From an uncultured Lentisphaeraceae bacterium (GTDB lineage Bacteria > Verrucomicrobiota > Kiritimatiellia > RFP12 > DVOR01): DNA of 64,000 nucleotides. Shown one piece after another: positions 9,265-34,263 of the stretch; within the stretch, counting starts at the first letter, position 1, and every line of letters begins with the position of its first letter. Below the pieces are notes generated by a model. That model ran no database searches, had not been told where the DNA came from, and worked only from the letters and a program-made list of their open reading frames with translations. The stretch covers positions 3,108 through 67,107 of the forward strand of contig CASDPK010000008.1 of NCBI GenBank assembly GCA_949282555.1. Direction: 5' to 3'. The translations under genes and the position numbers were made by a program.

Positions 9265-9281
9265 TACGGAGGAAGTTTTCC

Positions 9282-11645
9282 ATGGGAGACAACAGCATCG
9301 AGGCGGAACCGCTTCAGGAACCCAAGTGCCCGAAGTGTGGGGCGGCGTTGCCCAAGGAGGCCAAACCTCTGGAAAGCGTGGCGTGCCCGGCGTGCGGGGA
9401 GACGGTGATGGTCCCGGGAATGTTGGGACAATACCGACTGACGCGCCTCATTGGCAAGGGCGGCATGGGCGCGGTTTACGAAGGCGTGGACGATGGGCTC
9501 CAGCGCAAGGTGGCCGTGAAGGTCATTTTGCGGGGGAAGGCCGCGGAGGATCCCACCTTCCTCGAGAGTTTCCGACGTGAGGCGCAGGCCGCCGCGAAGT
9601 TGAACAATCCCCACATCGTGGGGGTGTATGCCTTCGGCGAAAGCGCGGGACAGCCGTATTTGGTGATGGAGCTGGTGCAGCCGGACTCGCTGGATCGCAT
9701 GATGGCTTCGGGCCCCATGATGCCGGCCACGGTCTTGAACATTGGTTCGCAGATCGCGCAGGGGTTGAAGGCCGCCGCCGAGCAGGGACTGGTGCATGGC
9801 GACGTGAAGCCTGAGAACATCCTCATCAATGCCGATCGTGAGGCCAAGCTTGCCGACTTTGGCATTGCGGCGTTGGCCGGTGCCCGCGCCGCGGCCAACA
9901 ATGAGGTTTGGGGAACGCCTTATTACATTGCGCCCGAGACGTTGCGGCGGCAAAAGGTGGATCTCCGGGCCGACATCTATTCGCTTGGAGGCACGCTCTA
10001 TCATGCCATTGCGGGTGTGCCGCCGTTTGAGGGCGCCGACGCGGTGGAGGTGATGAAGGCCCGATTGGTGGGGCCTGCCCGGCCGCTCCAAGAGGTGGCC
10101 CCCGACTGCCCGGAGGCGGTCGCCAAGATTGTCATGCGGATGCTGGAGTCAGAACCGATCCGGCGTTATCCGAACTACGATTCGCTCCTTTCCGACATGG
10201 CCAAGGAACTCCGTGCGGCGAAGTCGCGCACGGGCGGCGGCAAGCGGATTGTGCTCAAGGGCAAGACGGCGCCTGTCGGCGTGGGGAATTCCCGGCCGAT
10301 GCCGTCGGTCGAAAATCTGAATTCGCCGCTTATTCCCGAACGCAAGGGGATGAGCCGTGGGGCCATCATCGGCCTTGCGGCGGGGTTGGGGTGCGGTGTC
10401 CCCCTCTTGCTTGTGGGGATTGGCGCGCTCCTCTTTTTCTCGTTCGCGGCGGAGAAGACGGAAGAGATTGCGTCTGAACTCGCGACGGCGCAGGCCGCCG
10501 TCATGAATCCCGCGTTGGCGCAGGCGGCACAGGATCGCGACGCGCTGAAGGCGTTGGGCGAAGCCGCCGCCACCACGGCCACCCAGGCGAAGGCCCGCGC
10601 CGCGGAGGCCGCCGCCATCGTCAAAGGGCTTGCGCAGCAAGCACGGCGGGCGGTGATGCCGGGGCAGGAGTCGTGGCTGGAGCCATCGGAAGGCGAGGCC
10701 CCGACATCCATGCTCAAGGCGTTGCAGAAGGCATTCGCGCAGAGTGCGTCACTCGCAACGGCCGCGAAGGGCGCGGATGCGCTCCGCGCGAAGGTGGACG
10801 GTTTGACCGCGACGGCGGAAGCCCCCGGAACCGACACGCCGGAGGCGATCGCCAATGCGTTGGCTGAGGCCCGCAAGGCTTCGGAGGCCTATGCCAAGAC
10901 GCCGGAGGCGGCCTCTGCCACTGCGGACATGAACGCACTGTTGGCGCAGAGGAAGGGATGGCGCAAAACGGTGGATGCCGCACGAGCGGAGATGGAGGCC
11001 GCCGTCAAGGCAAAGTTTGCCGCGGAGAATGAGGCAAAGCGCAAGGCCGCGGAGGCCGCCGCCGCCGAACGTGCGCGGGAGGCCGCGCAGGCAGAGGTCG
11101 CTTCGGTCGTGACCATGGAAGCCGCCGTCGGTGAGGAGCTCAACCGATTCATGCCCGAAGCGGCGCTGAAGGCATTCAAGAGTCGGGCCGCCCGGTTGAA
11201 GTCTCCGGAGGCGAAGGCGGCCGCGGAGGTCTCGGTCGAGCGTTTGAAGGCGTATGCTCGCCTCAAGACCTGGTTCGTGGACAAGGCCGCAAAAGGTGAG
11301 CTGGCGAGCTTTGGGATCGCGTCGGCCGACACGGAGGGTGTGACGTTTTCCGGGAAACGGGTTCCATGGGGCGAGTTCGTGGCAGACCGTCAAGCGGTCG
11401 TGTTCCGCATTCTGAACACGCTGGTGGCGGACGATACGGGCGCACGGGCGCTGGGGGCAGGGGAACGGGCCGAATTGGCGGTCTCGGCCCGGCTTTTCGT
11501 GACGCGCTATTTCGGCACGGAGACGCTTGCAAAATCCAAGACGTTGCGCGACATGATGGATAAACTTCGGACCGTGGCCGAAGCGTTGCCGGGGCCCAAA
11601 GCGGAATTGGAGCGCGTGGAGGGGGCGACCCCCACCGCGGAGTGA
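9282..11645 (+). CDS. Hanks-type Ser/Thr protein kinase with N-terminal zinc ribbon and long C-terminal Ala/Glu/Lys-rich coiled-coil region
   Basis: CPKCG...CPACG, then the kinase subdomains GKGGMGAVY, VAVK, HGDVKPENILI, DFGIA and APE. GGAGG RBS lies before the ATG. Confidence 0.85.
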   Translation: MGDNSIEAEPLQEPKCPKCGAALPKEAKPLESVACPACGETVMVPGMLGQYRLTRLIGKGGMGAVYEGVDDGLQRKVAVKVILRGKAAEDPTFLESFRREAQAAAKLNNPHIVGVYAFGESAGQPYLVMELVQPDSLDRMMASGPMMPATVLNIGSQIAQGLKAAAEQGLVHGDVKPENILINADREAKLADFGIAALAGARAAANNEVWGTPYYIAPETLRRQKVDLRADIYSLGGTLYHAIAGVPPFEGADAVEVMKARLVGPARPLQEVAPDCPEAVAKIVMRMLESEPIRRYPNYDSLLSDMAKELRAAKSRTGGGKRIVLKGKTAPVGVGNSRPMPSVENLNSPLIPERKGMSRGAIIGLAAGLGCGVPLLLVGIGALLFFSFAAEKTEEIASELATAQAAVMNPALAQAAQDRDALKALGEAAATTATQAKARAAEAAAIVKGLAQQARRAVMPGQESWLEPSEGEAPTSMLKALQKAFAQSASLATAAKGADALRAKVDGLTATAEAPGTDTPEAIANALAEARKASEAYAKTPEAASATADMNALLAQRKGWRKTVDAARAEMEAAVKAKFAAENEAKRKAAEAAAAERAREAAQAEVASVVTMEAAVGEELNRFMPEAALKAFKSRAARLKSPEAKAAAEVSVERLKAYARLKTWFVDKAAKGELASFGIASADTEGVTFSGKRVPWGEFVADRQAVVFRILNTLVADDTGARALGAGERAELAVSARLFVTRYFGTETLAKSKTLRDMMDKLRTVAEALPGPKAELERVEGATPTAE

Positions 11646-16185: not shown

Positions 16186-17193
16186 TTACTTGTTCGCGGC
16201 TTCTTCGATGGCCACGGCCACGGCCACGGTCATGCCGACCATGGGGTTGTTGCCGGCGCCAATGAGGCCCATCATCTCGACGTGCGCAGGCACGGAAGAA
16301 GAACCGGCGAACTGAGCGTCGGAGTGCATGCGGCCCATGGTGTCGGTCATGCCATAGGAGGCGGGGCCGGCGGCCATGTTGTCGGGGTGGAGGGTACGGC
16401 CGGTGCCGCCACCGGAAGCGACGGAGAAGTACTTCTTGCCGGCGAGGACGCATTCCTTCTTGTAGGTACCGGCCACGGGGTGCTGGAAGCGCGTGGGGTT
16501 GGTGGAGTTTCCGGTGATGGAGACGTCCACGCCCTCCTGCCACATGATGGCGACGCCTTCGCGGACATCGTCAGCGCCGTAGCAGCGGACCTTTGCGCGG
16601 GGGCCATCGGAGAAGGCGATCTCGTTGGTGATGGTCAGCTTGCCCGTGAAGTAGTCGAACTCGGTTTCCACAAAGGTGAAGCCGTTGATGCGGCTGATGA
16701 TGTAGGCGGCATCCTTGCCCAGGCCGTTGAGGCACACGCGCAGAGGCTCCTTACGCACCTTGTTGGCCTTCATCGCAATGCCGATGGCGCCTTCGGCGGC
16801 GGCAAAGGATTCATGGCCGGCGAGGAAGCAGAAGCACTTGGTCTCTTCGCGCAGGAGCATGGCCCCCAGATTACCGTGACCAAGGCCGACCTTGCGGTCG
16901 TCGGCGACGGAGCCGGGGATGCAGAAGCTCTGGAGGCCTTCGCCGATGGCTTCGGCGGCATCGGCAGCCTTGGTGCAACCCTTCTTGAGGGCGATGGCCG
17001 CGCCGACGGTGTAGGCCCACTTCGCGTTCTCGAAGCAGATCTTCTGAATGTTCTCGACGATTTCGTAGGGGTCGAAGCCCTTGGCCTTGCAGATCTCGCG
17101 GCATTCCTCGACGGACTTGATACCATACTTATCGAGGACGGCCTGGATTTGCTTGATGCGGCGTTCGTAAGATTCAAACAGTGCCATGGTCAT
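16186..17193 (-). CDS. GGGtGRT family protein (uncharacterised, glycine-rich)
   Basis: Contains the family signature SGGGTGRTLHP. Start ATG 17193 was chosen from the context TAA-GGAGGAG-ATG directly after the upstream gene's stop. Confidence 0.8.
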   Translation of the reverse strand: MTMALFESYERRIKQIQAVLDKYGIKSVEECREICKAKGFDPYEIVENIQKICFENAKWAYTVGAAIALKKGCTKAADAAEAIGEGLQSFCIPGSVADDRKVGLGHGNLGAMLLREETKCFCFLAGHESFAAAEGAIGIAMKANKVRKEPLRVCLNGLGKDAAYIISRINGFTFVETEFDYFTGKLTITNEIAFSDGPRAKVRCYGADDVREGVAIMWQEGVDVSITGNSTNPTRFQHPVAGTYKKECVLAGKKYFSVASGGGTGRTLHPDNMAAGPASYGMTDTMGRMHSDAQFAGSSSVPAHVEMMGLIGAGNNPMVGMTVAVAVAIEEAANK

Positions 17194-17200
17194 CTCCTCC

Positions 17201-17914
17201 TTATTCGTGGCGGGGGTCAATGGACTTCACGGCACCCTGCTCCTCGGTGACGCGACCGTAGGTGCCGGTGCAGGCCTTGAGCGCCTCGTTGGCGTCCTGC
17301 CCCTTCTTCACGGCTTCCATGAACTTGCCCATGTGGACGAATTCGTAGCCGCAGACCTCGCTGTTCTTGTCGAGGTAGATCTTCTTGACGTAGCCCTCGG
17401 CCATTTCGAGGTAGCGCACGCCCTTCTGCTTGGTGGAGTACATCGTTCCCACCTGAGAGCGGAGGCCCTTGCCGAGGTCTTCAAGACCGGCGCCGATGGG
17501 CAAGCCGCCCTCGGAGAACGCGCTCTGGGTGCGCCCGTAGACGATCTGGAGATAAAGCTCGCGCATCGCGGTGTTGATGGCGTCACAGACGAGGTCGGTG
17601 TTCAACGCCTCCTGGATGGTCTTGCCGGGAAGGATCTCGGCGGCCATTGCGGCGGAGTGGGTCATGCCCGAGCAACCGATGGTTTCGACCAATGCTTCCT
17701 GGATGACGCCTTCCTTCACGTTGAGCGTCAGCTTGCAGGCGCCCTGCTGGGGCGCGCACCAGCCCACGCCGTGCGTCAGGCCGGAGATATCCTTGGTCTC
17801 ATAGACCTTGACCCATTTACCCTCTTCAGGAATGGGGGCCGGGGCGTGCTTGGCACCCTTGGCGACCGGGGTCATGCGCTCGACTTCGCTCGAGCAGGCG
17901 TAGGGACAACTCAT
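17201..17914 (-). CDS. IscU/NifU-like Fe-S scaffold domain protein with a C-terminal extra domain
   Basis: GVGWCAPQQGACKL...ETIGCSGMTHSAAMAAEILPGKTIQEALNTD...LVCDAI aligns with IscU GAPACGD...YGCGSAIASSS...KGKSLDEA..NTD...IHCS (three conserved Cys). Start 17914 has a GGAGG RBS. A 7-bp gap separates it from the GGGtGRT gene. Confidence 0.65.
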   Translation of the reverse strand: MSCPYACSSEVERMTPVAKGAKHAPAPIPEEGKWVKVYETKDISGLTHGVGWCAPQQGACKLTLNVKEGVIQEALVETIGCSGMTHSAAMAAEILPGKTIQEALNTDLVCDAINTAMRELYLQIVYGRTQSAFSEGGLPIGAGLEDLGKGLRSQVGTMYSTKQKGVRYLEMAEGYVKKIYLDKNSEVCGYEFVHMGKFMEAVKKGQDANEALKACTGTYGRVTEEQGAVKSIDPRHE

Positions 17915-17942
17915 GTTTCCTCCTTGGTTTGAGAGTGGGGTT

Positions 17943-17972
17943 ATTATACCGCCCCAACCCGTCCAACTGCAA
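17943..17972 (-). promoter_or_regulatory. Candidate sigma70 promoter TTGCAG-N18-TATAAT for the nifU-like/GGGtGRT operon
   Basis: Minus-strand -10 TATAAT at 17943-17948 and -35 TTGCAG at 17967-17972, about 25 nt upstream of the ATG. Confidence 0.4.
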
Positions 17973-18047
17973 GGGAAAACGGTGTGGAGACACGCTTGAG
18001 CGCCCCTAGGGGTGGGTTTGCGTTTCGCTTGTGGGGATACGAAAATG

Positions 18048-18076
18048 AAGAGCCGCCCTGCTCGGGCGGCTCTTTG
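18048..18076 (-). terminator. Rho-independent terminator downstream of tpiA
   Basis: Perfect 10-bp stem AGAGCCGCCC/GGGCGGCTCT, followed on the minus strand by TCATTTTCG. Confidence 0.5.
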
Positions 18077-18098
18077 AGTGGCGTCTGTTGCCTCAGAC

Positions 18099-18851
18099 TC
18101 ACTTCCCGGCGGCGACGATGGCCGCAAACGAGTCAGCCTTGAGGGCCGCTCCACCGATGAGGCCGCCGTCGATGTCGGGCTTGGCCATGAGTTCGCCCGC
18201 ATTTTCGGGCTTCATGGAGCCGCCATACTGAATGCGCACCTTGTCCGCCTGGTCGGGGTTCATCTTGGCGAGGGTGGCACGGATGAGGGCGTGCACTTCC
18301 TGAGCCTGGGTGGCGGTGGCCGTCTTGCCGGTTCCGATGGCCCAAACGGGCTCATAGGCGATGACGATCTTGGCGAAATCGGCCTGACATCCGGCGAGAT
18401 CTTGGGTGACCTGGCGGATGATGACCTCCTGCATCTTGCCCTCTTCGCGCTCTTCAAGCGTCTCACCCACGCACACGATCGGGGTAAGGCCGGCGGCAAG
18501 GGCGGCTTTGAGTTTGAGGTTCACGGTCTCGTCGGTCTCAGCGAAGTACTGACGGCGCTCGGAGTGGCCGAGAATGACGTACTGCACGCCGAGATCCTTG
18601 AGCATGGCGGCGGAGATTTCACCGGTGTAGGCACCGGATTCCTTCCAGTGCATATTCTGGGCGCCGAGGCCGATCTTGGCGCCTTCGAGGGCTTTAGCGG
18701 CGGCGGGGATGGCGGTGAAGGGGACGCAAACGACGACCTCCACGCCGCAATCGCCGTCATTGGTGGCCTTGCGGATGTCCTCGATGAGGGGCGTGGCCTC
18801 GGAGGGGGTCTTGTTCATCTTCCAGTTGCCGGCGACAATCTTGGTGCGCAT
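18099..18851 (-). CDS. tpiA: Triosephosphate isomerase
   Basis: [15 protein letters not shown], and the catalytic blocks [11 protein letters not shown] and GGSMKPENA. Confidence 0.9.
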
Positions 18852-18881: not shown

Positions 18882-19316
18882 TTACTCAACGGGACGCTTA
18901 CCGATGCAATCCTGGGGGCAGGTCTCACAGTTCCCGTCGCAGGACATTTCGGACTCATCCATCGCCAAATCATTAAAGCACTTTTCCGGGAATTCCTCAA
19001 CCGAAAGCGCATCGGCGACGGAGAAATCCTCAAAGTCGGTGCCCTCCGGAAAGGTGACAAGGTAGTAGGCTTCCGGGTCCAACCCCTCCACGGAGGGTTC
19101 CACGAATCCAGTCTCGGCATCCGTTGTCTCAACGAGGGAGAGCCCCAGTCGCTTGAAGGTATCTTCCGTGACGGCTTCGTCGTAGCACAACAGATCCATG
19201 AGATCGTAACCGGGGCAAGCGATTTGCGTTGCGGAGACGGGGCGGAGGTCAAACTCATCTTCTTCCGCCATGTCGTCCATGGCGGAAGGATCGGTGGGAT
19301 TTAGAGGCTCACTCAT
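18882..19316 (-). CDS. Small highly acidic protein with C-terminal CX3CX2CX3C motif, translationally coupled to the GspK-like gene
   Basis: ATGA overlap (start 19316-19314, upstream stop 19315-19313). Rich in D and E. C-terminus is CDGNCETCPQDC. No recognisable family. Confidence 0.5.
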   Translation of the reverse strand: MSEPLNPTDPSAMDDMAEEDEFDLRPVSATQIACPGYDLMDLLCYDEAVTEDTFKRLGLSLVETTDAETGFVEPSVEGLDPEAYYLVTFPEGTDFEDFSVADALSVEEFPEKCFNDLAMDESEMSCDGNCETCPQDCIGKRPVE

Positions 19317-22300
19317 GGCAACAGCTGGTAGTAGATGACGCGATCCGGAAGTTCGCCGTAGGCGTCGCGCCAAACAAGCGCCACGGCCCGTGCGGTGGAG
19401 AGCGGCTTGTGCTGGGAAAGATCCCGTCCGGAATTGTAGGCGATGGAGTCCGCACGCAAAATGTAGAGGAAGAGTTGCTGGCGGTCACCGAAGCATTCCT
19501 TGGCCGAGGCGACAAGGGTCGTGACGTCGTTCTGACCGAGAATCTTTCCGGTGCCTGCGGCGGCATTGTAAGCCTTGAGGCGATCGGCAAAGGAACCGGA
19601 CCCATCCGCGCCGGCAGGCTGGATGATGAAATCCTCCAACGTCTTAGGACGGGCGGGGCGGCCCTTGGTTCCCTTGTAGAGTTCCTGCTCACGCGTCCAG
19701 TCGCTGGCATTTGCGCCCACACCGCCGCCGGTCGTCGGCAGGGGGAAGAGATAATCACGGATAAAGTCATCGTACTTTGGCGCGGCAAGGCCGCCGGAGG
19801 GCACCTCAATATCCTTCAAGGTGTCCAAATCATCAAGCAGTTTGGGTGAGATCCGACCGGCGCTTTGGGCCGCACTGAGGCGATCATAGGTGACCTTGGC
19901 CGCCTGCTTGATGGTGGGGGCAATACCCAACAGTGCGAATTGTCGCAACCGCTGGCAGAGCACGTAATCATCCTGTCCCGCGAAGACATTGACGAGTGCA
20001 CGGTGCTCTTCCGGGAAGTTGTCGCCACTAAAGCTCTGGAACATGGAGCCAGTCTTGACATAGCGGTCGTAATCCAATGCGCCATCGTTGAAGTCCGCCA
20101 CAGGGAGGGTGCGGTAAAACGATTGCTTGGCCACTTTATCGTGATAATCGGCATAACTGTTTGTCAGATAGCCGCCCTTGTCACCCCAAACGGAGGACGC
20201 GACAGGGACCGGCAGGAAACACGCCTCGGCCGGCAGGAGCAATTGGTCCGTGTCGTTGTAGCCGTATCGGACATCCTCGGCCTTAAGACCCCAAGCGAAG
20301 GGCACAATGTCGGCGTGGGCTTCGGCATAACCCGTCGCGACATCCGAGGCGGAGGAAGAACCTCCGGTGATGTCGACGCCCTGCACGAAGGTCCAGTGCG
20401 GGGAAGAGAAGGAGGGCAACGGAGCAATGCCACTACCGCCGAAGTAGGCATTTCCGGAGTCCGACACGCCCAGCATGGGGGAGAGCCAGTTGTAACGCGG
20501 ATCGACGGCCGACCATGTTCCGGTGTCCGGAGAGAGGGTACTCCACGCGGGCGTGCTGGTTCCGGCAACGGCGAGTTTCCGACCACTGCCAAAGTCGAGC
20601 TCTGTGCTTGGCTCAATTTTGGGCGTCACCGTTACGGCATCGGAAAGTTTGGTTTTGCACTTGTAGCCGGTGATGGCACCGTTTTCACCTTCAATGGGCT
20701 CGGACTCCCACTCAAGTGCGAACTCCAGGACGACGGGCCGGGTGATGCGGAAGAACTGGCCGTCGAACTTCTCCATGGAGGCAGAGTTGAAGCGATCATT
20801 CAACGTCTTTGGATAATCCGTCCGCTGGCGGAGGATCTTGCCGGTGCCGACGGGGCAGATGTCCGCACTTCCACCGCCTCCTGTGGTCTTCGCACGGAAA
20901 AGGAAATCCACAGCGAAAGCCAAGCGCACCTTTGTGGCTTCGGGCTGAATGGGGGTGGCGCTTTCCTTGTTGGCGACGGGGAGATCTTTTCCGCTGAGTT
21001 CCAATTTGAGCTTCGCTCCGGACTTCAAGGGCACGGTGCCTTCAGAGAAGAGTGCACCATCGGCCGTGAGTCCGGTGTCGCCGCCGGAAAGGTCGGCAGA
21101 GGCACTTTCGGTCTTGAATTCCAACTGCTTGTTGTTTGAGACCACAACGGCAGAACCGAATGCCGCCGCAAACCCCTCTGCACCAATCGTGTAACTCTCC
21201 TCGGAGGATTCATAACCGGGGAAATAGGAACGGAGGGAAATCTCCGTTTCCGGAGCGGGGAGCTCAATGTCCAGCACAACGGAATCATCCAGCGTTGTCG
21301 GGAATTTGTCGGGAGAGGTGTAGCCAGTGGCAGGCATTCCCTCCGGCGACTTCCCTTCAAATCCTTTGAGTGCTTCGGTGAGGCCGGAAACAAAGTCGCT
21401 CCCGAGAGAAGTGTCACCATCAAAGGGGTAAGACACGTCGGAGATCATGGGGACGTTTTCGACGGTCGGTTGCGCCTGTGCGAGGAAGTCCGGGTCAGAG
21501 CCGCCGTCCGAATCCAACACCCCGGGCTGAGAATCCTTGTCAAGGTAATCGCGGAGCATTCGCAGGAAGACGGTCGGCGCATCCAACGCATTCCCATCGC
21601 TGATGGTCTTGCGGTAGAGCTCTTCGATTCGCCCGCCAACGGAGGATGCGGAGGAGGGATCGCCGATGTCTTCGGCTTTGACCTCGTCACAAGAGATGAG
21701 CGGAGCGCCATCGGACGTCGTGTTGTCTGCGGTGCCGCCGCTCTTCTCGTCCTTTCGCGTATGGCGGGGCCAGAAACTGTAAACCGAGAAGGGGGAGAAC
21801 CCTCCGATGCCCTCTTTGTAGATGGCGGATTCCCAAGAGTAGGGGTAGATGTCGCTGCCGTTGTCGGTCACCAACAGCGCATCGCTGCCACGTGCCGCAT
21901 ACCATGCCAAATCGGCGTTCGAGAGGAACGTTGGAAGATCCAGTTGGCTACTGGCGGGGTTCTGTTCGGAATCCAACAAATCATAGCGGTCGGAAGCTTG
22001 CCCGGAAGCGGAGGTGCCGGGCGCTTGGCCAAAACCGAATTCATTGCCGGTGAGGCCAATGCCGCGGTAGGGGGAGGCGGACGAAATGCCATTGATGTCC
22101 ACGGAGTCGGAGAGGTTCACCACCGCCCACGCCATGCGCCCGACAACGGCGGTGTTGATTTCCGTCTTACTGCCGCCAACGGTGCTTTCGACAGAGGGAA
22201 TCAGGGCATTGACGGGCTTCCAGCCCGCGGTCCAATCGACATAATATTTCCCGCTGTAACCTTTGTGGCTGATACCATCGTAGAAGGGCTCTTGGAGCTC

Positions 22301-22762
22301 CAACGTGGCATAGACGTTGTAGGCGATGGCGGGCGGGAGATGGCGCAACACCGTATCGTCAAGCAGATAGGCAATCGGCTCTTTGTCGGGCTCACGCTGA
22401 GTGGAGGCAGAGAACTCGCTGGACCCGGTGTTGCGGGACGTGATGAGGCGCCCGTAGTAGTCCAGATTAGGGTAACGGAAGGGGGCGAGCGCTTCAACCG
22501 TGCGGGTGTCGGGGTTGTCACGATCAAACGTCCCGGCCTCGTCTCTCTGGCTTTTGAGGGCGAAGTCCACGGTCGCACGCGCATCGGTGAAGGCCGAGGC
22601 GAGCAACTCTCGGGCAATGAGATTCCGGCGATAGGCGGCCGCGGCGGAGCGCTCCGTGCGCATGGAGATGGAGAAGGCCACGGCACTGATCATCAGAAAA
22701 CCGAGGAGCCCCAACACAATGAGCAGGGCTGAACCGCGCTTTGGATCAGAAGAATGGAACAT
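19313..22762 (-). CDS. Giant GspK-like minor pseudopilin (1149 aa) with a long Ser/Gly/Asp/Thr-rich extracellular region
   Basis: N-terminus KRGSALLIVLGLLGFLMISAVAF matches the GspK signature (R-G-x-ALL-x-VL). It is the last pilin-like gene of the pseudopilin operon. Confidence 0.6.
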   Translation of the reverse strand: MFHSSDPKRGSALLIVLGLLGFLMISAVAFSISMRTERSAAAAYRRNLIARELLASAFTDARATVDFALKSQRDEAGTFDRDNPDTRTVEALAPFRYPNLDYYGRLITSRNTGSSEFSASTQREPDKEPIAYLLDDTVLRHLPPAIAYNVYATLELQEPFYDGISHKGYSGKYYVDWTAGWKPVNALIPSVESTVGGSKTEINTAVVGRMAWAVVNLSDSVDINGISSASPYRGIGLTGNEFGFGQAPGTSASGQASDRYDLLDSEQNPASSQLDLPTFLSNADLAWYAARGSDALLVTDNGSDIYPYSWESAIYKEGIGGFSPFSVYSFWPRHTRKDEKSGGTADNTTSDGAPLISCDEVKAEDIGDPSSASSVGGRIEELYRKTISDGNALDAPTVFLRMLRDYLDKDSQPGVLDSDGGSDPDFLAQAQPTVENVPMISDVSYPFDGDTSLGSDFVSGLTEALKGFEGKSPEGMPATGYTSPDKFPTTLDDSVVLDIELPAPETEISLRSYFPGYESSEESYTIGAEGFAAAFGSAVVVSNNKQLEFKTESASADLSGGDTGLTADGALFSEGTVPLKSGAKLKLELSGKDLPVANKESATPIQPEATKVRLAFAVDFLFRAKTTGGGGSADICPVGTGKILRQRTDYPKTLNDRFNSASMEKFDGQFFRITRPVVLEFALEWESEPIEGENGAITGYKCKTKLSDAVTVTPKIEPSTELDFGSGRKLAVAGTSTPAWSTLSPDTGTWSAVDPRYNWLSPMLGVSDSGNAYFGGSGIAPLPSFSSPHWTFVQGVDITGGSSSASDVATGYAEAHADIVPFAWGLKAEDVRYGYNDTDQLLLPAEACFLPVPVASSVWGDKGGYLTNSYADYHDKVAKQSFYRTLPVADFNDGALDYDRYVKTGSMFQSFSGDNFPEEHRALVNVFAGQDDYVLCQRLRQFALLGIAPTIKQAAKVTYDRLSAAQSAGRISPKLLDDLDTLKDIEVPSGGLAAPKYDDFIRDYLFPLPTTGGGVGANASDWTREQELYKGTKGRPARPKTLEDFIIQPAGADGSGSFADRLKAYNAAAGTGKILGQNDVTTLVASAKECFGDRQQLFLYILRADSIAYNSGRDLSQHKPLSTARAVALVWRDAYGELPDRVIYYQLLP

Positions 22763-22783: not shown

Positions 22784-23326
22784 TTAGGGATTGAGGATTC
22801 GGTGACGCCCTACCGCAGGTACGAGAATGGTATACTCGTCGTCGGCGTCCTGAGCGTCGGTGACCGCCTGTTTCACGCGGATGCGGTAAGGATTGCCCCA
22901 GGGGTCATAAAGTGTGTTGCCCCGCAAGGTGGGATGGTTGGCATTGAAATAGACGGTCTTGGCATCGTTTGCCGAGGGATCGGTAAGTTTGTTGACGATT
23001 GTTCCCTTGGCTTCGTTGATGCCTTCGGAAAGGCCCAAGTCTCCCATGGGATCCCCACCGTCGTCACCATCGCCATCGGAAGTGTCGAGCATTGTCAGGC
23101 AATAGAGACGGATGGCGTCGCCCAGCGCGCGTCCCTCAGCCGTGGCCTTGACGGTACGGGCGTTTTCTCTGGCGGCGTAGGTCGAGAAAGCAAAACTTGC
23201 AATGAGGATGCCGATGATAGCGATCACCACCAACAACTCAATCAACGTGAACCCGGCACGGGCCGCATGTGCGATCTCATCGTACGGACGTGCAGGGAAT
23301 GGATTGCCTAAATGGTTCAGGTTCAT
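22784..23326 (-). CDS. Type II secretion/type IV pilus-like pseudopilin, GspG-like (carries DPWGNPY)
   Basis: Leader ...ARAG|FTLIELLVVIAIIGIL (prepilin cleavage/methylation motif). C-terminal DPWGNPYRIR matches the GspG hallmark. Start 23326 has a GAGGA RBS. Confidence 0.7.
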   Translation of the reverse strand: MNLNHLGNPFPARPYDEIAHAARAGFTLIELLVVIAIIGILIASFAFSTYAARENARTVKATAEGRALGDAIRLYCLTMLDTSDGDGDDGGDPMGDLGLSEGINEAKGTIVNKLTDPSANDAKTVYFNANHPTLRGNTLYDPWGNPYRIRVKQAVTDAQDADDEYTILVPAVGRHRILNP

Positions 23327-23376
23327 GTCGCGGTCCTCAATCCAAAGGGGTTCGTGGGCATACGCTTGTGCCGTTG

Positions 23377-24174
23377 TCACTTGTCCTCACCTTCCGGCCA
23401 AGGGCGGATATCGTCCTCAGTGCCCCACTCACCATCGGGGCCGCAGGAGGCAACGGCGATCTCGTAATCGTTGACGGTGGGGGGCGTTTGAGGTCTGATT
23501 TTGATTTTGACGGCTGGGAGCGGATAGCTGGAGTTGAAGGCGGCGTCGTAATTGCTGCCGGAGACCGTCTCAAAGGTAATGCTACCGCCCTTGAGTGCGT
23601 ATGTCGTGGAGGTGCTCTTGCCGCCGTCGTAAGGTTCTTCCTTGCGTGTCACGGAGGAGCCACCCGAATACGTCACGCGGATCAGCTCACGGAGCGCTCC
23701 GTTGCCGGAGCCTTTGAGCTGTTCGTCCGGGTCCGTCGGTGGGCGAAGAATCCAAAAATCCAGCCCGCCGGACAGTTTCCCCTCCGCCGCGAGATCACTT
23801 TCGCTTGTGAGCGGGGTTTCCCCATCCATCATCACGAAGTTGTAAGGGTCCACCATCATGGCGAGATCGCGGCCAAGCGCGCCGACAACGGCGCGGGTGA
23901 CGGATTGCGCGTCGGCGCGCTTCAAGCCGAGCGACCATGCCAGCCCTGTCTGCTGGAAGATCCCCGCGACGATGAGCACAATGATGGAGAGGATGGTCAT
24001 CGCCACCAACACTTCAATGAGCGAGAACCCTTGGCGGAGCCTTTGGAGTCCGCGGTGTACGCGATTGAGCGGTGCACCGCATCCACGCTCGCGATACGGA
24101 GCCTCTCGCCCCGAGATACGGACTCCATCGGCCGAGGCCTCAGGCTGTCCTGTGCAAAGATGCGTCAAATCCAT
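23377..24174 (-). CDS. Prepilin-type N-terminal methylation domain protein (minor pseudopilin, GspJ-like position)
   Basis: RLRQG|FSLIEVLVAMTILSIIV motif. The annotated start gives an unusually long leader, so the true start may be a downstream non-ATG codon. Confidence 0.5.
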   Translation of the reverse strand: MDLTHLCTGQPEASADGVRISGREAPYRERGCGAPLNRVHRGLQRLRQGFSLIEVLVAMTILSIIVLIVAGIFQQTGLAWSLGLKRADAQSVTRAVVGALGRDLAMMVDPYNFVMMDGETPLTSESDLAAEGKLSGGLDFWILRPPTDPDEQLKGSGNGALRELIRVTYSGGSSVTRKEEPYDGGKSTSTTYALKGGSITFETVSGSNYDAAFNSSYPLPAVKIKIRPQTPPTVNDYEIAVASCGPDGEWGTEDDIRPWPEGEDK

Positions 24175-24184
24175 GGTCGTGCTC

Positions 24185-24718
24185 CTATTTGTTCGTGGAG
24201 GTGACGAACACGTTTACCACGTAGACCGGGGCGGTTTTCAGCGGGCGTGTGTTCTTGCTGCAATCCTCTCCGGTGGCTTGGACGCAGACTTGGACGGCTT
24301 CGGTCTTCCGGTCGCCGTTGTTCACGGTTTCGATGTTCCCGGAATTGGTGACATCGGGTTCTTTCCACCATGCACGGTACCACACGCCGGAATTTTCGGG
24401 ATCTTCGTGCGCTTCCACCCTGTCGTCGTCTTCCACGGGGTCTTCCACGCGAAAGCCGAAATCGCCCTCCAACTCATCCAGCAACGTGTCGGCATCCACC
24501 ACGCCGGGCTTTTCGGCGACGGTCCGGGCGGCCCCCATGAAGCGTTCACAGAAGGCTGCCACGCGCATTTCGTTGCGGGCGGCCAAGCTTTCACGCAATC
24601 CGAGCGGGAAAAGGCCGAGCAATGCCAACGCCCCGCCGGCCAAAACGAAGATGGCCATGTTGACCTCGATCAGGGAGAAGCCTGCACGCAGGGCCGTATG
24701 AAAGGAAATTCGTCGCAT
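24185..24718 (-). CDS. Prepilin-type N-terminal methylation domain protein (minor pseudopilin, GspI-like position)
   Basis: ALRAG|FSLIEVNMAIFVLAGGALALLGL. Confidence 0.5.
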   Translation of the reverse strand: MRRISFHTALRAGFSLIEVNMAIFVLAGGALALLGLFPLGLRESLAARNEMRVAAFCERFMGAARTVAEKPGVVDADTLLDELEGDFGFRVEDPVEDDDRVEAHEDPENSGVWYRAWWKEPDVTNSGNIETVNNGDRKTEAVQVCVQATGEDCSKNTRPLKTAPVYVVNVFVTSTNK

Positions 24719-24729
24719 GGGGGGCCTCC

Positions 24730-25641
24730 TTATTTGACGCTGACGGTACCCTGACCATCAACACTGACGGTGAAGGTGGCGTTCTTGGCATTCTTCGAGA
24801 TCGAGTGCGCCGCAGTGACCGAAGAGGCGGAGCCGGATTGGAGGCTCCCCTCGGGGCCAAAGATGAAGACCGCCCGATCGCCGCCCTCAAACGCATAAGC
24901 GTCGGGCAGAGAGAAGGTCGCCGTCACACGCACGGCCATCGGGAAGGCGCGGTCACTGGGAGCCGAGCCTTCCAGCGTCGCGACCCAAAAACCGGGGTTA
25001 CTCCGGGTGGCGCCTTCCTCGCCAATCTCAAGGTCTGCGTCTCCAGCGAGCATTTCCAACGACTTCTTCTGCCCTGCGACCCAGTAATCATAACTGAGAC
25101 GATTCTTGCGGTTGTTGTTGATTTGCTCGTTCAGATCGTCATTATCCTTTGTGGGATCATCCGCGATTTTGTCAATCCGCATAAAGGTGGACGCATCGGG
25201 GTCGAACAAGTTGATGGCTCGGGCGTTTTTGCGCAAGGCCGCGCCCAAGACTTCCCGCTGAAGGCCAAACGGAGCGAGCAAGGTTTTTCCCTCGTGCCAA
25301 ACGTTCCCGATGGATTGGAAGAGCGCGTAACGTCCCTGCTTTACTTTCTGCTTTTTACTGCCGACCACGATCTCGGTGTCGCTGTTCCAACAAACCACCA
25401 CGTGCGTTTTGCCGAGGATACAGGCCTGCTGTCGCGCCAAGAGGAGCGTGTCTCGGAGTTGGTTGCGGCTTTTGGTGACCCCTTCTTGGCGCATGGCACC
25501 GAAAAAGGAGGTGGCGGCCATGGTGATGAGCATCGCGGCGATGCCGATGACCACCATCAGTTCGATCAGTGTGAAACCCGAACGTCGGGAAAGTGTTCCT
25601 TCCCGTGCCGACGCGTCTGTCCCGAAAAACGTCATACCCAT
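24730..25641 (-). CDS. Prepilin-type N-terminal methylation domain protein (GspH-like pseudopilin)
   Basis: SRRSG|FTLIELMVVIGIAAMLITMA. Its size and position match GspH-type proteins. Confidence 0.55.
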   Translation of the reverse strand: MGMTFFGTDASAREGTLSRRSGFTLIELMVVIGIAAMLITMAATSFFGAMRQEGVTKSRNQLRDTLLLARQQACILGKTHVVVCWNSDTEIVVGSKKQKVKQGRYALFQSIGNVWHEGKTLLAPFGLQREVLGAALRKNARAINLFDPDASTFMRIDKIADDPTKDNDDLNEQINNNRKNRLSYDYWVAGQKKSLEMLAGDADLEIGEEGATRSNPGFWVATLEGSAPSDRAFPMAVRVTATFSLPDAYAFEGGDRAVFIFGPEGSLQSGSASSVTAAHSISKNAKNATFTVSVDGQGTVSVK

Positions 25642-25709
25642 TTGGAAATCCCTTTCGTCGTGCGAGGTTCACAGGGGGTCGCAGATCCGGCGCCCAATGT
25701 TCTGGCCGA

Positions 25710-26363
25710 TCAGTTCAATTGGATCACCTCTGCGAAGCTTCCTTCGTGAGGGGAGGTGACGGAGACATGATCCAAATCAAAATCATAGGTGATTTTGAGC
25801 GGGGCAAACGCTCTCGCTTGGCTGAGACGTTTGTACTTGCTGACGCCGGTCTTGTTCATTGTGACCAAGAACCCGATCATGTCACTGGCCGAAACGCCGC
25901 CGCCTGTGAGCGCATCGTCAAGTTTGGTGACGCGGCGTCCACCTTTGCAGACGTAGAACATTGAGGAATCCGTGATATAAGCGCGCTTTGCGTCATCACG
26001 CTTGCCGTTGGCATCGCGCCCAAGAAGCAACATCACGATTTCGGCATTGCCCTCCTTGGGGCGATTGTTGTTGACGGAGCCGAAGGTCGCGGAGCTAACG
26101 TCGGAGGAGTACGCCTCGGGGAGCGGATAGGCGCCATGCTCGTTCTTGTAGGCCATGATGGCACTTTCGACGATTTCCACGCAAGCGTTGCGCTTTGTCT
26201 TCTCGGCGCCTTTGATTACACGGGTCACGCCAATGACGCCCAATCCGACCAACGTGGCGAGGATGACCACCACCACCATCAGTTCAATCAATGTGAAGCC
26301 TGCACGGGAGCGTTGGGCGGCCTTGAGGGAGCGTAAGGAAGCAAGCGGAGTCGCGATATTCAT
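25710..26363 (-). CDS. Prepilin-type pseudopilin (GspG-like paralog)
   Basis: SRAG|FTLIELMVVVVILATLVGLGVIGV...AIMAYKNEHGAYP, a GspG-like N-terminal helix. Confidence 0.6.
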   Translation of the reverse strand: MNIATPLASLRSLKAAQRSRAGFTLIELMVVVVILATLVGLGVIGVTRVIKGAEKTKRNACVEIVESAIMAYKNEHGAYPLPEAYSSDVSSATFGSVNNNRPKEGNAEIVMLLLGRDANGKRDDAKRAYITDSSMFYVCKGGRRVTKLDDALTGGGVSASDMIGFLVTMNKTGVSKYKRLSQARAFAPLKITYDFDLDHVSVTSPHEGSFAEVIQLN

Positions 26364-26447
26364 GGATGAAATCCTTTTTGAGCGTTGAGGCTGGGAACGT
26401 GAGAAGAGAGGCGCGGCAATGGCAACCGCGCCATGTCTTGCACGCGT

Positions 26448-27089
26448 TTACCAACTTTGGGCGTAGACTTCGCCGTTCTTTTCACCGTCTTCCGCCCAGC
26501 ACCAAACCGCGGCGTCTCCGCGGACTTTGCCGCCGGGCACCGACAATTTGGCGGGAAGGCCATCGGAAGAATCGACGATGCCATCCTCGTTGACATCAAG
26601 GACAAATTGGTAAAGGTGATCGGTCACATCCGAACCGCTCCGGCCTTGCTTAAAGCGCTTGGCGCCGATGGGATCAAGCATGCCGTACTTCAATTCGGCC
26701 TCGTTTTCCCTGTTACGGCGGAGGCCGGCCTGCGTGGTGGAATCCGTCGCGTCGGTGTCGATATAGAGCACGTCCAAAAGGCCGGCCTTGCCCAACACCA
26801 AGCACATATCCGTGTCCATGGACTTCACGCCGGAGGAGGCGATTTTGTATTCTTCCGGCCAAAAGCCGACATCGCGGTGATAGTTGGTCCACGCCACGGC
26901 AATCTGCTTGCAGTCGTCGGCGGCATTTTTTCGACGCGCCGATTCCATGAACGCCGTGTAACCGCCGGCGGTGATGCCCCCCAAAATGCCGAGGATCACG
27001 ATGACGACGAGCAACTCAATGAGCGTGAAACCCGCACGGCGAGCGCCAAGGCCCTGAGTGCGGCGTCCGAAAGCATGCGTTCCGTTCAT
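26448..27089 (-). CDS. Prepilin-type pseudopilin (GspG-like paralog)
   Basis: ARRAG|FTLIELLVVIVILGILGGITAGGYTAF. Confidence 0.6.
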   Translation of the reverse strand: MNGTHAFGRRTQGLGARRAGFTLIELLVVIVILGILGGITAGGYTAFMESARRKNAADDCKQIAVAWTNYHRDVGFWPEEYKIASSGVKSMDTDMCLVLGKAGLLDVLYIDTDATDSTTQAGLRRNRENEAELKYGMLDPIGAKRFKQGRSGSDVTDHLYQFVLDVNEDGIVDSSDGLPAKLSVPGGKVRGDAAVWCWAEDGEKNGEVYAQSW

Positions 27090-27126
27090 AAGAATCTCCC
27101 TCTTCCTCTAGGCATGATGGCCGTAA

Positions 27127-27945
27127 TCAGTCCTCGTCGTCATCGGCGATGCCGCTGGCCGTGATGTCGTCGGCCGTCCCGAAGGCTCCATCCGGGCCGG
27201 CGGAGATGATTTCCCCGGCGCCGCCATCGTTCCGATACTTGAGGGCGTGCTCCCAGGCATCGCTCTTGGCACCTGCGGTATAACGTTGGGCGCCGCATTC
27301 GACACAGACGGTTTCTCCACTTTTCACCAAGCCATCTTTTTGGAGACGTCGCCAAGTACGGTAGATCTGCTGAAGATTGTTGTCTGCGGCTTCATTGGCG
27401 GCAGTGGCGCCCAAGGCGTCGCTCGCGTTTTTGAGCCCTCGGATTTCGGTGGCCCACGGCGTGTCTGCCGCGGGATTCCGATACATTTCTTTGTAGTGGC
27501 CCAGAAGCTCATCGGAAACGGCTTCTGAAATCACGGTTGCACGTGGCACAAAGTGTGAACACAGGCCGAACTGAATTTCGTCGGCATTGTTGCTGTTGGT
27601 GACGGCTTTGAATCCGCAGTATTTGCATCCGGGCGAGCCCGACTCGGAAACAAAGCGGAAGTCCAAAGGGGCGTACCCATTGCTATCCGTATTGGAAACG
27701 ACGGGATAATCGCCGTAGATGGCCTTGTATTCCTCGAGCAAGGTGGCGATGGCGTGGATTTGCGCGGTGGTTTCCGCGATCGCGGCTTTGTCACGCGCGG
27801 CACGGATCATTCGGAAGAGTCCCGCCGCCAAAATGCCGAGGATCACGATGACGACCAACAATTCAATGAGCGTAAACCCCGCGCGTTGCCGAATGCGCGT
27901 TTGCGCCGGCATGACGGCGCGGTTGCCAAACGATAAGTGGTTCAT
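27127..27945 (-). CDS. Prepilin-type pseudopilin (GspG-like paralog) with acidic C-terminal tail
   Basis: RQRAG|FTLIELLVVIVILGILAAGLF...EEYKAIYGDYP. Start 27945 has a GGAGGG RBS. The tail ends ...ASGIADDDED. Confidence 0.6.
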   Translation of the reverse strand: MNHLSFGNRAVMPAQTRIRQRAGFTLIELLVVIVILGILAAGLFRMIRAARDKAAIAETTAQIHAIATLLEEYKAIYGDYPVVSNTDSNGYAPLDFRFVSESGSPGCKYCGFKAVTNSNNADEIQFGLCSHFVPRATVISEAVSDELLGHYKEMYRNPAADTPWATEIRGLKNASDALGATAANEAADNNLQQIYRTWRRLQKDGLVKSGETVCVECGAQRYTAGAKSDAWEHALKYRNDGGAGEIISAGPDGAFGTADDITASGIADDDED

Positions 27946-28029
27946 GGAAAATCCCTCCGACAAAACGGAATGAAGCCTGATGGTGGGCGGGGCCGCACCA
28001 TGCCGTGCGAACCTCGCCCGCCGGGGCTG

Positions 28030-29322
28030 TTAGGCCCCGGTCTGCTGGCCGATGGTGCCGATGATGGAGATCAGCGGCATGAACATGGCGATGACGATGC
28101 CGCCGACCACGACGGCAAGGAAGATGATCATGATGGGCTCGATGATCGAGGTCATGGCGGCCACCGCGTTGTCCACTTCATCGTCGTAGGTGTTGGCCAC
28201 GCGGATGAGCATCTCGGGAAGGGCGCCGGTCTCTTCGCCGACTTCCACCATGGAAACGACCATGGGCGGGAAGACGCCGCTGGCGCCGAGGGGCGCCGTC
28301 ATGCCCTCGCCTTCCTTCACGCTGTCGTGGACGGATTGGAGCGCCTTGGAGATGACTTGGTTGCCGGTGGTCTCCTTGACGATGCTGAGCGCCTGGAGCA
28401 CCGGAACGCCGGAGCTGAGCAGGGTGCCAAGCGTACGGGTGAGACGCGCGACCACGGTCTTTTGGGTGAGTTGTCCGAAGACCGGCGCACGCAGGGCCAT
28501 GACGTCGTGGGCGTAGGAGCCGAAGGGCGTCTTGAAGAAGATCTTGGAGAGGACGACAAAACCGACGATGCCCGCGATGAGGAAGAGCCAGTAGTTTTGC
28601 ACCCACTCGGAGAGGCTGATGACGAACTGCGTAAGCGCGGGCATTCCTTCGCCGCCCATGAGGTCATCGAAGATCTGCTGGAACTTCGGAATGACCGCGA
28701 GCATCAGGAAGATCACAATGCCCAACGCGGCGCAGAGCACCACGATGGGGTAGGTCATCGCGCCCTTGACCTTGTTCTTGATCTTTTCGGCCTTTTCCAT
28801 GAACTCGGCCAAGCGGTTGAGCACCGTTTCCAACACACCGCCGGCCTCGCCGGCCTTGACCATGTTCACATAGAGGTGGTTGAAGATCTTGGGGTAGTTG
28901 CCCAACGATTCCGAGAAGGTGTTGCCGGTCTCCACGGTTTCAATCATTCCGTTGAGGGCGTCCTTGAGCGTTTCGTTGGCCGCCTGCCGGTGAAGCACAC
29001 GCAAACCGCGCAACAGGGGAAGGCCCGCATCCACCAGCGTCGCCAGCTGGCGCGTGAAGACCATCAAGTCTTTGGTCTTCACTTTGGCACGCAGGAACTT
29101 CGGGGTCTTGATTGTGATGTTTGCGGACTTTTTGGGCGCGGAGCCCTTGGCAGGCTTGGGGGCGGCCCCATCTGAAGCGTCTTCCTTGATCAGGCCGATG
29201 GCCTTGGGCGTGAGCTTCATGGCACGAATCTTTTCGATCGCGGCGCCTTGGGAATCGGCCTCGACTGTGCTAAGCACTTCCTTGCCTTGGGAATCCACTG
29301 CCTTGTACCTGAACTTGGCCAT
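28030..29322 (-). CDS. gspF: Type II secretion system / type IV pilus platform protein GspF/PilC family
   Basis: MAKFRYKAVDSQGKEV... N-terminus, two GspF-type repeats, three TM segments. Start 29322 was verified as a CAT reverse complement. Confidence 0.85.
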   Translation of the reverse strand: MAKFRYKAVDSQGKEVLSTVEADSQGAAIEKIRAMKLTPKAIGLIKEDASDGAAPKPAKGSAPKKSANITIKTPKFLRAKVKTKDLMVFTRQLATLVDAGLPLLRGLRVLHRQAANETLKDALNGMIETVETGNTFSESLGNYPKIFNHLYVNMVKAGEAGGVLETVLNRLAEFMEKAEKIKNKVKGAMTYPIVVLCAALGIVIFLMLAVIPKFQQIFDDLMGGEGMPALTQFVISLSEWVQNYWLFLIAGIVGFVVLSKIFFKTPFGSYAHDVMALRAPVFGQLTQKTVVARLTRTLGTLLSSGVPVLQALSIVKETTGNQVISKALQSVHDSVKEGEGMTAPLGASGVFPPMVVSMVEVGEETGALPEMLIRVANTYDDEVDNAVAAMTSIIEPIMIIFLAVVVGGIVIAMFMPLISIIGTIGQQTGA

Positions 29323-29383
29323 CGTCGTGTGTCCTTGTTTTGAGCTCAATGGGGCACGGCCCCAATTCCACATTGCTTTTTCA

Positions 29384-29412
29384 TTATAGCCGAAGCCTCC
29401 GACCTTCTGCAA
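29384..29412 (-). promoter_or_regulatory. Candidate sigma70 promoter TTGCAG-N17-TATAAT upstream of gspF
   Basis: Minus-strand -10 TATAAT at 29384-29389 and -35 TTGCAG at 29407-29412. These are the same hexamers as the promoter at 17943-17972. Confidence 0.4.
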
Positions 29413-33429: not shown

Positions 33430-34263
33430 ATGCAACGCTTCGCCGTCCTTGGCCATCCCATCGGCCACAGTTTCTCGCCGGTCATGCACACGGCGAGCTT
33501 TCGGAAGATTGGTTTCGACGGCGAATATGTCCGCTTGGACGTTCCGCCGGAAACGTTGGCCGACGCGCTCAACGCACTCGCCGACGAGGGGTTCACGGGC
33601 GCCAACCTCACCATCCCTCACAAGCAGTTGGCGGTGCCGATGATGGATCGGCTCACACCCGAGGCTGAACGGCTTGGGGCTGTGAATACGGTTCTCTTTC
33701 GCGACGGCAAGATGTGGGGGCACAATACCGATGGCCCCGGATTCCTTGCGGCGGCAAAGACCATGCTGGATTTTCACCCCGAGGGGCGCCGTGCGGCGGT
33801 GATCGGGTGCGGTGGCGCGGGTCGTGCGATCGCCATCACCCTCGCGCATGCGGGCGTCCGAACGTTGGGACTGATCGACTTGGATACCGCCCGTGCGGAG
33901 GCTCTTGCGCGGGAGATTTCCGAGACGTCCCCCGCGCAGGCCGAAGTTATTGGCCATGACCGTTTGCGTGAGGCTGACCTTGTGGCGCAGTGTTCGCCCA
34001 GCGGGTTGGCGGTGTTCCCTGAGCCCGCGGCCCGAATGGCGGATTTCCGCGAAGGGCAATGTCTGTACGATATTGTCATCCCTCCGGGTGCGCCCGTCAC
34101 CCCCACAATGGCAGAGGCTTCGAAAGCGGGGGTCCGGTGCGCCAATGGCGTTCGGATGCTGGTGGAGCAGGGGGCGCTTTCCTTTGCCTTTTGGACGGGC
34201 CTTGAGGCCGATCGCGAGGCGATGTGCCGCGCGGTGGAGGAAGGTTTGGCCGGGCATGAATGA
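33430..34263 (+). CDS. aroE: Shikimate dehydrogenase
   Basis: FAVLGHPIGHSFSPVMH..., LTIPHKQ, GAVNTV, and the Rossmann motif GCGGAGRA. Confidence 0.85.
   Translation: MQRFAVLGHPIGHSFSPVMHTASFRKIGFDGEYVRLDVPPETLADALNALADEGFTGANLTIPHKQLAVPMMDRLTPEAERLGAVNTVLFRDGKMWGHNTDGPGFLAAAKTMLDFHPEGRRAAVIGCGGAGRAIAITLAHAGVRTLGLIDLDTARAEALAREISETSPAQAEVIGHDRLREADLVAQCSPSGLAVFPEPAARMADFREGQCLYDIVIPPGAPVTPTMAEASKAGVRCANGVRMLVEQGALSFAFWTGLEADREAMCRAVEEGLAGHE

Follow-up and report, generated by a model that had tools for sequence, protein, structure and literature searches.

A small acidic protein with a conserved four-cysteine tail is encoded directly after a giant GspK-like gene in gut Kiritimatiellia

The open reading frame (ORF) at positions 18882-19316 of the window, i.e., the whole 64-kb stretch of DNA analyzed here, is a real, conserved gene. 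As judged from gene order and spacing in related genomes, it is co-inherited and co-transcribed with a subfamily of giant GspK-like proteins, and the exact overlap between the two genes is not conserved. We propose, with a probability of roughly 0.4, that its product is a clade-specific metal-binding accessory dedicated to the pseudopilus. A role of this accessory as a chaperone or in an assembly checkpoint is suggested by the genomic context and is less certain than the accessory reading itself.

RESULTS

The small gene and its product

The gene is located on the minus strand, and its translation from 19316 to 18882 comprises 144 aa followed by a stop codon (MSEPLNPTDPSAMDDMAEEDEFDLRPVSATQIACPGYDL...MSCDGNCETCPQDCIGKRPVE), corresponding to a protein of ~16 kDa. 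The coding sequence (CDS) is supported by its translation, its homologs, and the core of its AlphaFold model. Its features are as follows:

18882..19316, minus strand: acidic Cys-tail CDS (ATG at 19316-19314, stop codon at 18884-18882)
19313..19316, minus strand: ATGA start/stop overlap between the small and the giant genes (ATG at 19316-19314 over TGA at 19315-19313)
19215..19217, minus strand: codon of the invariant Cys34 in the motif Q-x-A-C-x-G-x-D-L, at the strand 1/helix 1 junction of the AlphaFold model
18906..18941, minus strand: C-terminal tail CDGNCETCPQDC (C126-X3-C130-X2-C133-X3-C137)

An earlier note on this DNA had described a strongly acidic 144-aa protein that starts with an ATGA overlap on the giant gspK-like gene and ends in a Cys4 motif. 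Length and acidity are borne out by the translation, in which 38 Asp/Glu residues stand against 6 Lys/Arg residues, and acidic residues account for 26% of the protein versus 8-13% in the products of neighboring genes; the overlap is found at 19313-19316. The Cys4 motif is also present; it is not the end of the protein, as seven further residues (IGKRPVE) follow CDGNCETCPQDC, among which G139 and K140 are invariant. The protein contains seven Cys residues (positions 34, 44, 113, 126, 130, 133, and 137) and no His. Neither a signal peptide nor a transmembrane segment was detected in it (highest 19-residue Kyte-Doolittle mean, 0.74) and, because it lacks an export signal, the protein is predicted to be cytoplasmic.

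The codon-position GC content of the small gene (0.61/0.39/0.68) is typical of its neighbors. An alternative, longer ORF begins from a TTG at 19373; the homologs described below begin at or near the ATG instead. No Shine-Dalgarno-like sequence was found within 30 nt upstream of the ATG, and this is compatible with coupling to the upstream giant gene and is no proof of it.

Position of the small gene in a gspF-pseudopilin operon

The operon is on the minus strand, with gspF/pilC followed by seven prepilin-type genes, the giant gene, the small gene, and tpiA:

28030..29412, minus strand: gspF/pilC platform gene, first of the operon (T2SSF, 8e-66; TIGR02120 GspF, 6.5e-120)
22784..27963, minus strand: seven prepilin-type (pseudo)pilin genes (N_methyl/TIGR02532; longest-ORF coordinates 27127-27963, 26448-27089, 25710-26363, 24730-25641, 24185-24718, 23377-24174, and 22784-23380)
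19313..22762, minus strand: giant GspK-like minor pseudopilin of 1149 aa with large beta-sandwich insertions
18099..18851, minus strand: tpiA for triosephosphate isomerase (TIM; PF00121, 1.5e-102), 30 nt downstream of the small gene
18048..18074, minus strand: terminator-like hairpin just 3' of tpiA (11-bp stem with 8 GC pairs, T-rich tail)

The seven prepilin-type genes have weak matches to GspG, GspH, and Verru_Chthon B, C, and D, and the transcription unit probably ends with tpiA. Upstream of gspF, divergent genes on the plus strand code for a CinA-aminotransferase and a TPP-enzyme. Neither a gspE ATPase gene nor a gspD secretin gene belongs to the gspF-pseudopilin operon. The prepilin peptidase (A24) gene is separate, at 33893-35314 on the plus strand, with Pfam domains that begin at residue 148 of the longest ORF. 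Another GC-rich terminator-like hairpin, at 26410-26432 on the minus strand, separates the second GspG-like gene (26448-27089) from the pseudopilin gene at 25710-26363, and could act as an attenuator that sets the ratio of major to minor pseudopilins.

On the 3' side of the terminator, a NifU_N-like gene (weak match, 5.5e-5) and a GGGtGRT gene (PF14057, 1e-196) occupy 16186-18202 on the minus strand; this pair is not conserved beside the operon in other loci. An Rfam search of the window returned no RNA family. Other genes of the window, at 4784-7591, 9282-11645, 37651-40149, and 40309-42057 (all plus strand), code for a GH101 endo-alpha-N-acetylgalactosaminidase, a eukaryotic-type Ser/Thr kinase, an ankyrin-repeat protein, and a 9-repeat Sel1 protein. 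GH101 enzymes function in mucin O-glycan degradation, and the four genes are consistent with a host-associated PVC bacterium.

The giant is GspK-like by its modeled structure and its N-terminus

The N-terminus of the giant (KRG|SALLIVLGLL) is prepilin-type with Ile at position +5 and no Glu5; a prepilin-like N-terminus without Glu at +5 is the hallmark of GspK. G10 to L19 are invariant in 37 homologs of the giant. Its AlphaFold model (pLDDT 80) opens with a 64-residue helix and has the GspK fold that is shared with the classical GspH-I-J-K minor pseudopilin sets, in which GspK has ~300 aa compared with 1149 aa here. At the sequence level, there was no Pfam match (T2SSK included), and the sole NCBIfam match, to Verru_Chthon protein A, scored 11 bits against a cut-off of 332. 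Because it matches no T2SSK or GspK-family model, we set the giant outside the sequence-level GspK family and refer to it as GspK-like on the basis of its predicted structure and its N-terminus. A toxin-immunity reading was rejected: the C-terminus of the giant is part of the conserved GspK-like core with no variable toxin domain, and there was no PADLOC match.

The bulk of the GspK-like giant is periplasmic, whereas the small protein carries no export signal, and it is unlikely to be a physical component of the pilus tip. The label "T2SS component" applies to the small protein by gene linkage only.

The small protein belongs to a family of uncharacterized proteins from gut metagenomes

The earlier note had named lack of conservation in relatives as evidence against this ORF; we found 53 distinct homologs with E-values of 1e-87 to 1e-12 and identities down to ~35%. 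A word-indexed search yielded 26 homologs (E-values of 1e-87 to 5e-31), an exhaustive phmmer scan of 1.8 billion representatives yielded 10 true relatives (identity down to 37%), and a profile built from distant members yielded further homologs. The top matches in the phmmer scan, P0027 (4190 aa) and P0033 (4331 aa), are artifacts. These proteins contain ~20 tandem copies of a ~95-aa D/T/A/V-rich repeat (LDPDASATVTFSDGTN versus LDPEAYYLVTFPEGTDF) that matches residues 62-95 weakly, and they rank at the top because the scores of many weak repeat matches were summed, which is a warning for automated family building.

ORFs of such length are frequent, with 91 of at least 60 aa in 16 kb of the window, and together with the lack of a recognizable ribosome-binding site, this could be taken to indicate that the small gene is a mere chance ORF in the GC-rich DNA that separates the giant gene from tpiA. 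That reading is refuted by the 53 homologs with their invariant motifs and by a frame kept in ~44 loci, and a confident structure prediction and the neighbor-like codon-position GC pattern also argue against it; we regard its probability as negligible.

In their source databases, the homologs are annotated only as "hypothetical" or "uncharacterized." All come from animal or human gut metagenome-assembled genomes that are labeled Kiritimatiellia/Kiritimatiellae, Ca. Spyradenecus, or Lentisphaeraceae. Three N-terminal variants, none with a signal peptide, occur in the family: a short acidic N-terminus in 29 sequences, including the protein in the window; a Cys/His/Asp-rich N-terminus (CGCGCD..H..; e.g., CGCGCDDDCHHHDD) in 19 of the 53 members; and an extra segment of ~70 residues in 5 sequences.

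Five cysteines are invariant, and the tail most likely binds a metal

In a six-frame translation of the whole window, CX3CX2CX3C is unique to CDGNCETCPQDC. The consensus of the tail in the family is C-x-G-x-C-x-x-C-x-Q-x-C-x-G-K, and the strict motif is present in 52 of 53 sequences, 1-8 residues from the C-terminus. Five Cys residues are invariant, namely, C34 and the four tail residues C126, C130, C133, and C137, which span 12 residues; C44 and C113 are not among them, and C113 is kept in close relatives only. G36, G128, Q135, G139, and K140 are also invariant. Around Cys34, the invariant columns are A33, C34, G36, D38, and L39, and the core motif [AS]-C-x-[GA]-x-[DE]-L is present in 53/53 sequences.

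Because an all-Cys tail is found in a cytoplasmic protein, and because Cys/His-rich N-terminal add-ons recur in the family, the tail most likely binds a metal, as far as sequence can indicate. It could form a Zn(Cys)4 knuckle, a site in which one Zn is coordinated by four Cys residues of a short segment, or it could form an Fe-S site, in which the CX3CX2C triad would be joined by C137 or C34 as the fourth ligand; the latter is plausible because the hosts are gut anaerobes. The spacing CX3CX2CX3C has been given as a rare variant of 4Fe-4S ferredoxin motifs (PMC8928951).

If the tail and C34 held an Fe-S cluster or a redox-sensitive Zn, the protein might instead be a redox, iron, or oxygen sensor whose state regulates the activity or expression of the pseudopilus, e.g., by sequestering a regulator or the ATPase, according to a WhiB/RsrA-like logic. 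The five invariant Cys residues with their radical SAM-type triad, the spacing known among ferredoxin variants, the anaerobic gut hosts, the small, acidic, and cytoplasmic protein, and a Cys tail that is disordered in the model and needs a partner to fold are in line with a sensor. However, the protein has neither a DNA-binding nor a sigma/anti-sigma-like domain and does not match WhiB, ZAS, or Fer4, the conserved neighborhood includes no regulator gene, and a position after the tip pseudopilin rather than at the start of the operon is atypical of regulators. We therefore consider a sensor rather unlikely.

A scan of metagenomes with a degenerate version of the tail motif returned 38 loci, of which 8 are family members. 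The remainder comprises chance ORFs of short length, a family of sigma-70 region 4 proteins, and a SlyD-like metal tail (L074); since the search pattern itself dictated the residues in common, these matches have no value as evidence of homology. The sigma-70 region 4 proteins (~165 aa; human gut metagenome contigs L042, L049, L059, L061, and L069) contain RCxGxCSECRQNCxGKP between their N-terminal part and region 4. This segment agrees with the tail of the small protein in its Cys spacing and in the positions of G, Q, and GK, a match that is imposed by the pattern and is not evidence of homology, and it represents another uncharacterized Cys4 module.

The conserved domain of the small protein matches no known family or fold

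An AlphaFold model of the small protein was built from an alignment of 27 sequences (pTM 0.62). Its core, at residues ~22-120, has a pLDDT of ~90 and the topology beta-alpha-alpha-beta-beta-beta-beta-alpha; in this cofactor-free model, disorder is predicted for the N-terminus and for the Cys tail, the latter with a low pLDDT. A fold search identified no solved relative and no likeness to SecB, T3SS class I chaperones, or metalloproteins. Based on this model, the core may be a new fold.

Searches of Pfam-A, NCBIfam, PHROGs, and PADLOC assigned the protein in the window to no family at E-values up to 0.1, and a PDB sequence-profile search gave no match. Scanning 25 family members at E-values up to 10 gave only noise (FeoB_associated, 0.28; PhyR_sigma-like, 0.01), and the PhyR sigma-like match, which is found in the subgroup with the long N-terminus and covers 11 residues, was rejected as such. 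The literature that was searched contained no account of such a small protein or of the Verru_Chthon cassette. The profile searches that the earlier note had proposed thus gave no known family, and its view that no such component has been described for T2SS or type IV pili (T4P) agrees with the absence of Pfam, NCBIfam, and solved-fold matches.

We compared the protein with the definitions of families that have similar Cys motifs. Fer4 proteins have one or more CX2CX2CX3CP motifs in a beta-alpha-beta ferredoxin fold and match Pfam Fer4; the small protein has a single CX3CX2CX3C at the tail, no Fer4 match, and no fold match. Radical SAM proteins have CX3CX2C in a partial TIM barrel of at least ~200 aa (PF04055); here, the triad C126, C130, and C133 is present, but the protein has 144 aa, no PF04055 match, and a disordered tail. 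The characteristic fold of secretion chaperones (SecB, T3SS class I) is lacking as well. A TusA/SirA-like protein (Cys at a helix N-terminus, "CPxP") had no support from Pfam or fold searches, and P35 is not conserved. A papain/NlpC-like Cys protease (Q31...C34) was also rejected, as the protein in the window has no His and the family has no invariant His.

A conserved Cys-rich segment at the extreme C-terminus, after an acidic region, would be expected of a RiPP-like precursor in which the folded domain serves as the leader and the Cys tail as the core of a modified or exported peptide. SCIFF/ranthipeptide precursors are defined by a length of ~45 aa, six Cys residues, a match to TIGR03973, and an adjacent radical SAM maturase. 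The small protein matches neither TIGR03973 nor any other NCBIfam precursor model, and genes for a radical SAM/SPASM maturase, a peptidase-transporter, or any other maturase are absent from the conserved neighborhoods. A well-folded domain of 100 residues with its own invariant Cys is also atypical of leaders, which makes a precursor very improbable.

The small gene is linked to the giant gene rather than to tpiA

As the earlier note had suggested, we examined homologs downstream of gspK-like genes. The giant gene is directly upstream of the small gene in 30/30 loci recovered via the small protein, in L031-L033, and in 8/8 further metagenome loci. Across ~44 loci in total, the small gene starts at -4 to +52 nt relative to the end of the giant gene, and the frame is maintained. 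In a reverse check, 3/3 loci chosen via the giant (34-40% identity) carry the small gene next to it. Among the 30 loci, tpiA is directly downstream of the small gene wherever the contig reaches that far. The eight further metagenome loci have this gene order as well, and the position of the glycolytic gene tpiA is kept in most of the ~44 loci and lost in L031 and L032.

Among the 34 loci in which the spacing from the giant stop codon to the small start codon was determined, 11 have the ATGA overlap (-4), and the rest have gaps of +4 to +52 nt. The earlier note had taken the overlap to imply stoichiometric co-expression. This was an over-reading: ATGA is an ordinary operon architecture that supports co-transcription and possibly translational coupling, not a fixed stoichiometry.

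Across the 30 loci, TIM is 77-91% identical, compared with 36-65% for the small protein and 29-69% for the giant; the small protein evolves as fast as the giant and is ~50% identical where TIM is ~90% identical. The TIM identities indicate a narrow clade, in which synteny alone is weak evidence and partly reflects shared ancestry. The most divergent members, L031 and L032, are informative in this respect: they keep the order gspF-pseudopilins-giant-small, and Peptidase_S49/NfeD is located downstream in place of tpiA. Because these loci swap tpiA yet retain the giant-small pair, we assign the small gene to the giant and not to tpiA.

Operons with remotely related giants (L034 and L035) have no small gene. 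In L034, the slot after the giant gene is occupied by another pseudopilin gene. In L035, it is occupied by a signal-less ORF of 171 aa (8783-9298; MELNEEQKKTVAGWFAAG...) whose central part is acidic and of low complexity; the next gene is another pseudopilin gene. This ORF was rejected as a homolog of the small gene (hhalign probability, 0.6%). A small cytoplasmic protein encoded after the giant may be a recurring theme that is served by different families. Among the recovered loci, no copy of the small gene was found in any other context.

These data also bear on the possibility that the small protein is a passenger metalloprotein, such as a ferredoxin-like carrier or a metal buffer, that is unrelated to secretion and kept in place by ancestry. 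There is a precedent in the same operon, since tpiA is unrelated to secretion and equally syntenic in most loci; moreover, the sampled clade is narrow, and the Cys/His-rich N-terminal tails resemble generic metal-binding tails, of which the SlyD-like tail of L074 was matched in the motif scan. Against this, the small gene remains with the giant where tpiA is replaced, is missing from operons with distant giants, and was not found elsewhere; its product diverges at the pace of the giant, which is unlike a housekeeping electron carrier, and has no ferredoxin fold and no Pfam match. On balance, we think that a passenger is improbable.

DISCUSSION

Under the reading that we favor, in which the small protein is an accessory dedicated to the pseudopilus, it would combine three segments: an acidic N-terminus that is disordered, a compact alpha/beta domain with QxACxGxDL, and a flexible all-Cys tail. 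The tail (CxGxCxxCxQxCxGK) would hold a metal center, and C34, if it were the fourth ligand, would dock the tail onto the domain. The gene would be co-transcribed, and often translationally coupled, with the giant gene at the end of the gspF-pseudopilin operon. Its product would function at the inner membrane, on the cytoplasmic side, most plausibly as a chaperone or checkpoint factor that depends on the metal and serves either the giant prepseudopilin itself or the step at which the latter is passed on to the GspF/GspE platform. We propose a dedicated accessory factor because the small and giant genes are inherited together. The likeness to a chaperone or checkpoint factor lies in the extreme acidity, the small size, the cytoplasmic location, and the tight coupling to one very large protein that has to be inserted and translocated. 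Dedicated chaperones are not normally involved in prepilin insertion, which takes place co-translationally via SRP/Sec, and for this reason a dedicated chaperone would be unusual. Moreover, as the presence of tpiA illustrates, unrelated genes can ride in the operon.

The chaperones SecB, T3SS class I (CesT/SycE), and T6SS Eag resemble the small protein in being small, acidic, and cytoplasmic and in having their genes beside that of a large client. Secretion-chaperone genes adjoin the gene for a large exported or membrane-inserted client and are often translationally coupled to it. With SecB and the T3SS chaperones, these general properties are shared and the fold is not. The tail is similar in Cys spacing to the motifs of 4Fe-4S ferredoxins and radical SAM proteins (CX2CX2CX3C and CX3CX2C, respectively), and being an acidic protein of an anaerobe is a further likeness; in contrast to these proteins, the small protein has a single motif on a flexible tail and neither a ferredoxin nor a TIM-barrel fold.

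By position, the nearest analog is PilY2 of Pseudomonas aeruginosa. The pilY2 gene is a small ORF after the large pilY1 gene, which encodes a tip-associated product of ~1100 aa, at the end of the fimU-pilVWXY1Y2E minor-pilin operon. The likeness is one of gene position alone: PilY1 is not a GspK-type pseudopilin, and PilY2 belongs to a T4aP system of Gammaproteobacteria, unlike the small protein. We know of no Cys4 tail or extreme acidity in PilY2. According to a 2026 preprint, PilY2 is poorly characterized and has only subtle effects on polarity and cAMP.

The operon is also similar to the Verru_Chthon cassette (TIGR02600/02598/02599/02596) in having a protein of >1100 aa and several prepilin-type proteins in a PVC host. 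Matches to Verru_Chthon proteins A-D are weak, N-terminal, and all far below the family cut-offs, and the cassette in NCBIfam consists of four proteins (A-D) with no small Cys-tail member.

In a more far-reaching version of our proposal, the small protein would be a new-fold cytoplasmic component of the T2SS/pseudopilus of PVC bacteria, with an Fe-S center or redox-active Zn on a swinging C-terminal arm that gates the insertion or assembly of the giant by the redox or iron state of the anaerobic cell; we regard this version as quite unlikely.

The small-protein family is phylogenetically narrow, and we infer its function from context. It can be defined by QxACxGxDL and CxGxCxxCxQxCxGK in a protein encoded after a ~1150-aa GspK-like gene, a definition that could seed a curated model. 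By its predicted structure, the protein is a candidate for a new small metal-binding fold. Were it a passenger metalloprotein, it would add one more uncharacterized family of limited reach.

The components of the T2SS and of type IV filament machines are considered to be well catalogued, and pseudopilins are taken to function without a dedicated partner in the cytoplasm. The operon described here is of a known kind, i.e., that of a T2SS-type pseudopilus, with an additional uncharacterized and clade-specific part. Gut Kiritimatiellia probably use a pseudopilus secretion system to export glycan-degrading enzymes and, if the small protein is an accessory of the pseudopilus, it would be a lineage-specific part added to the secretion system of these bacteria.
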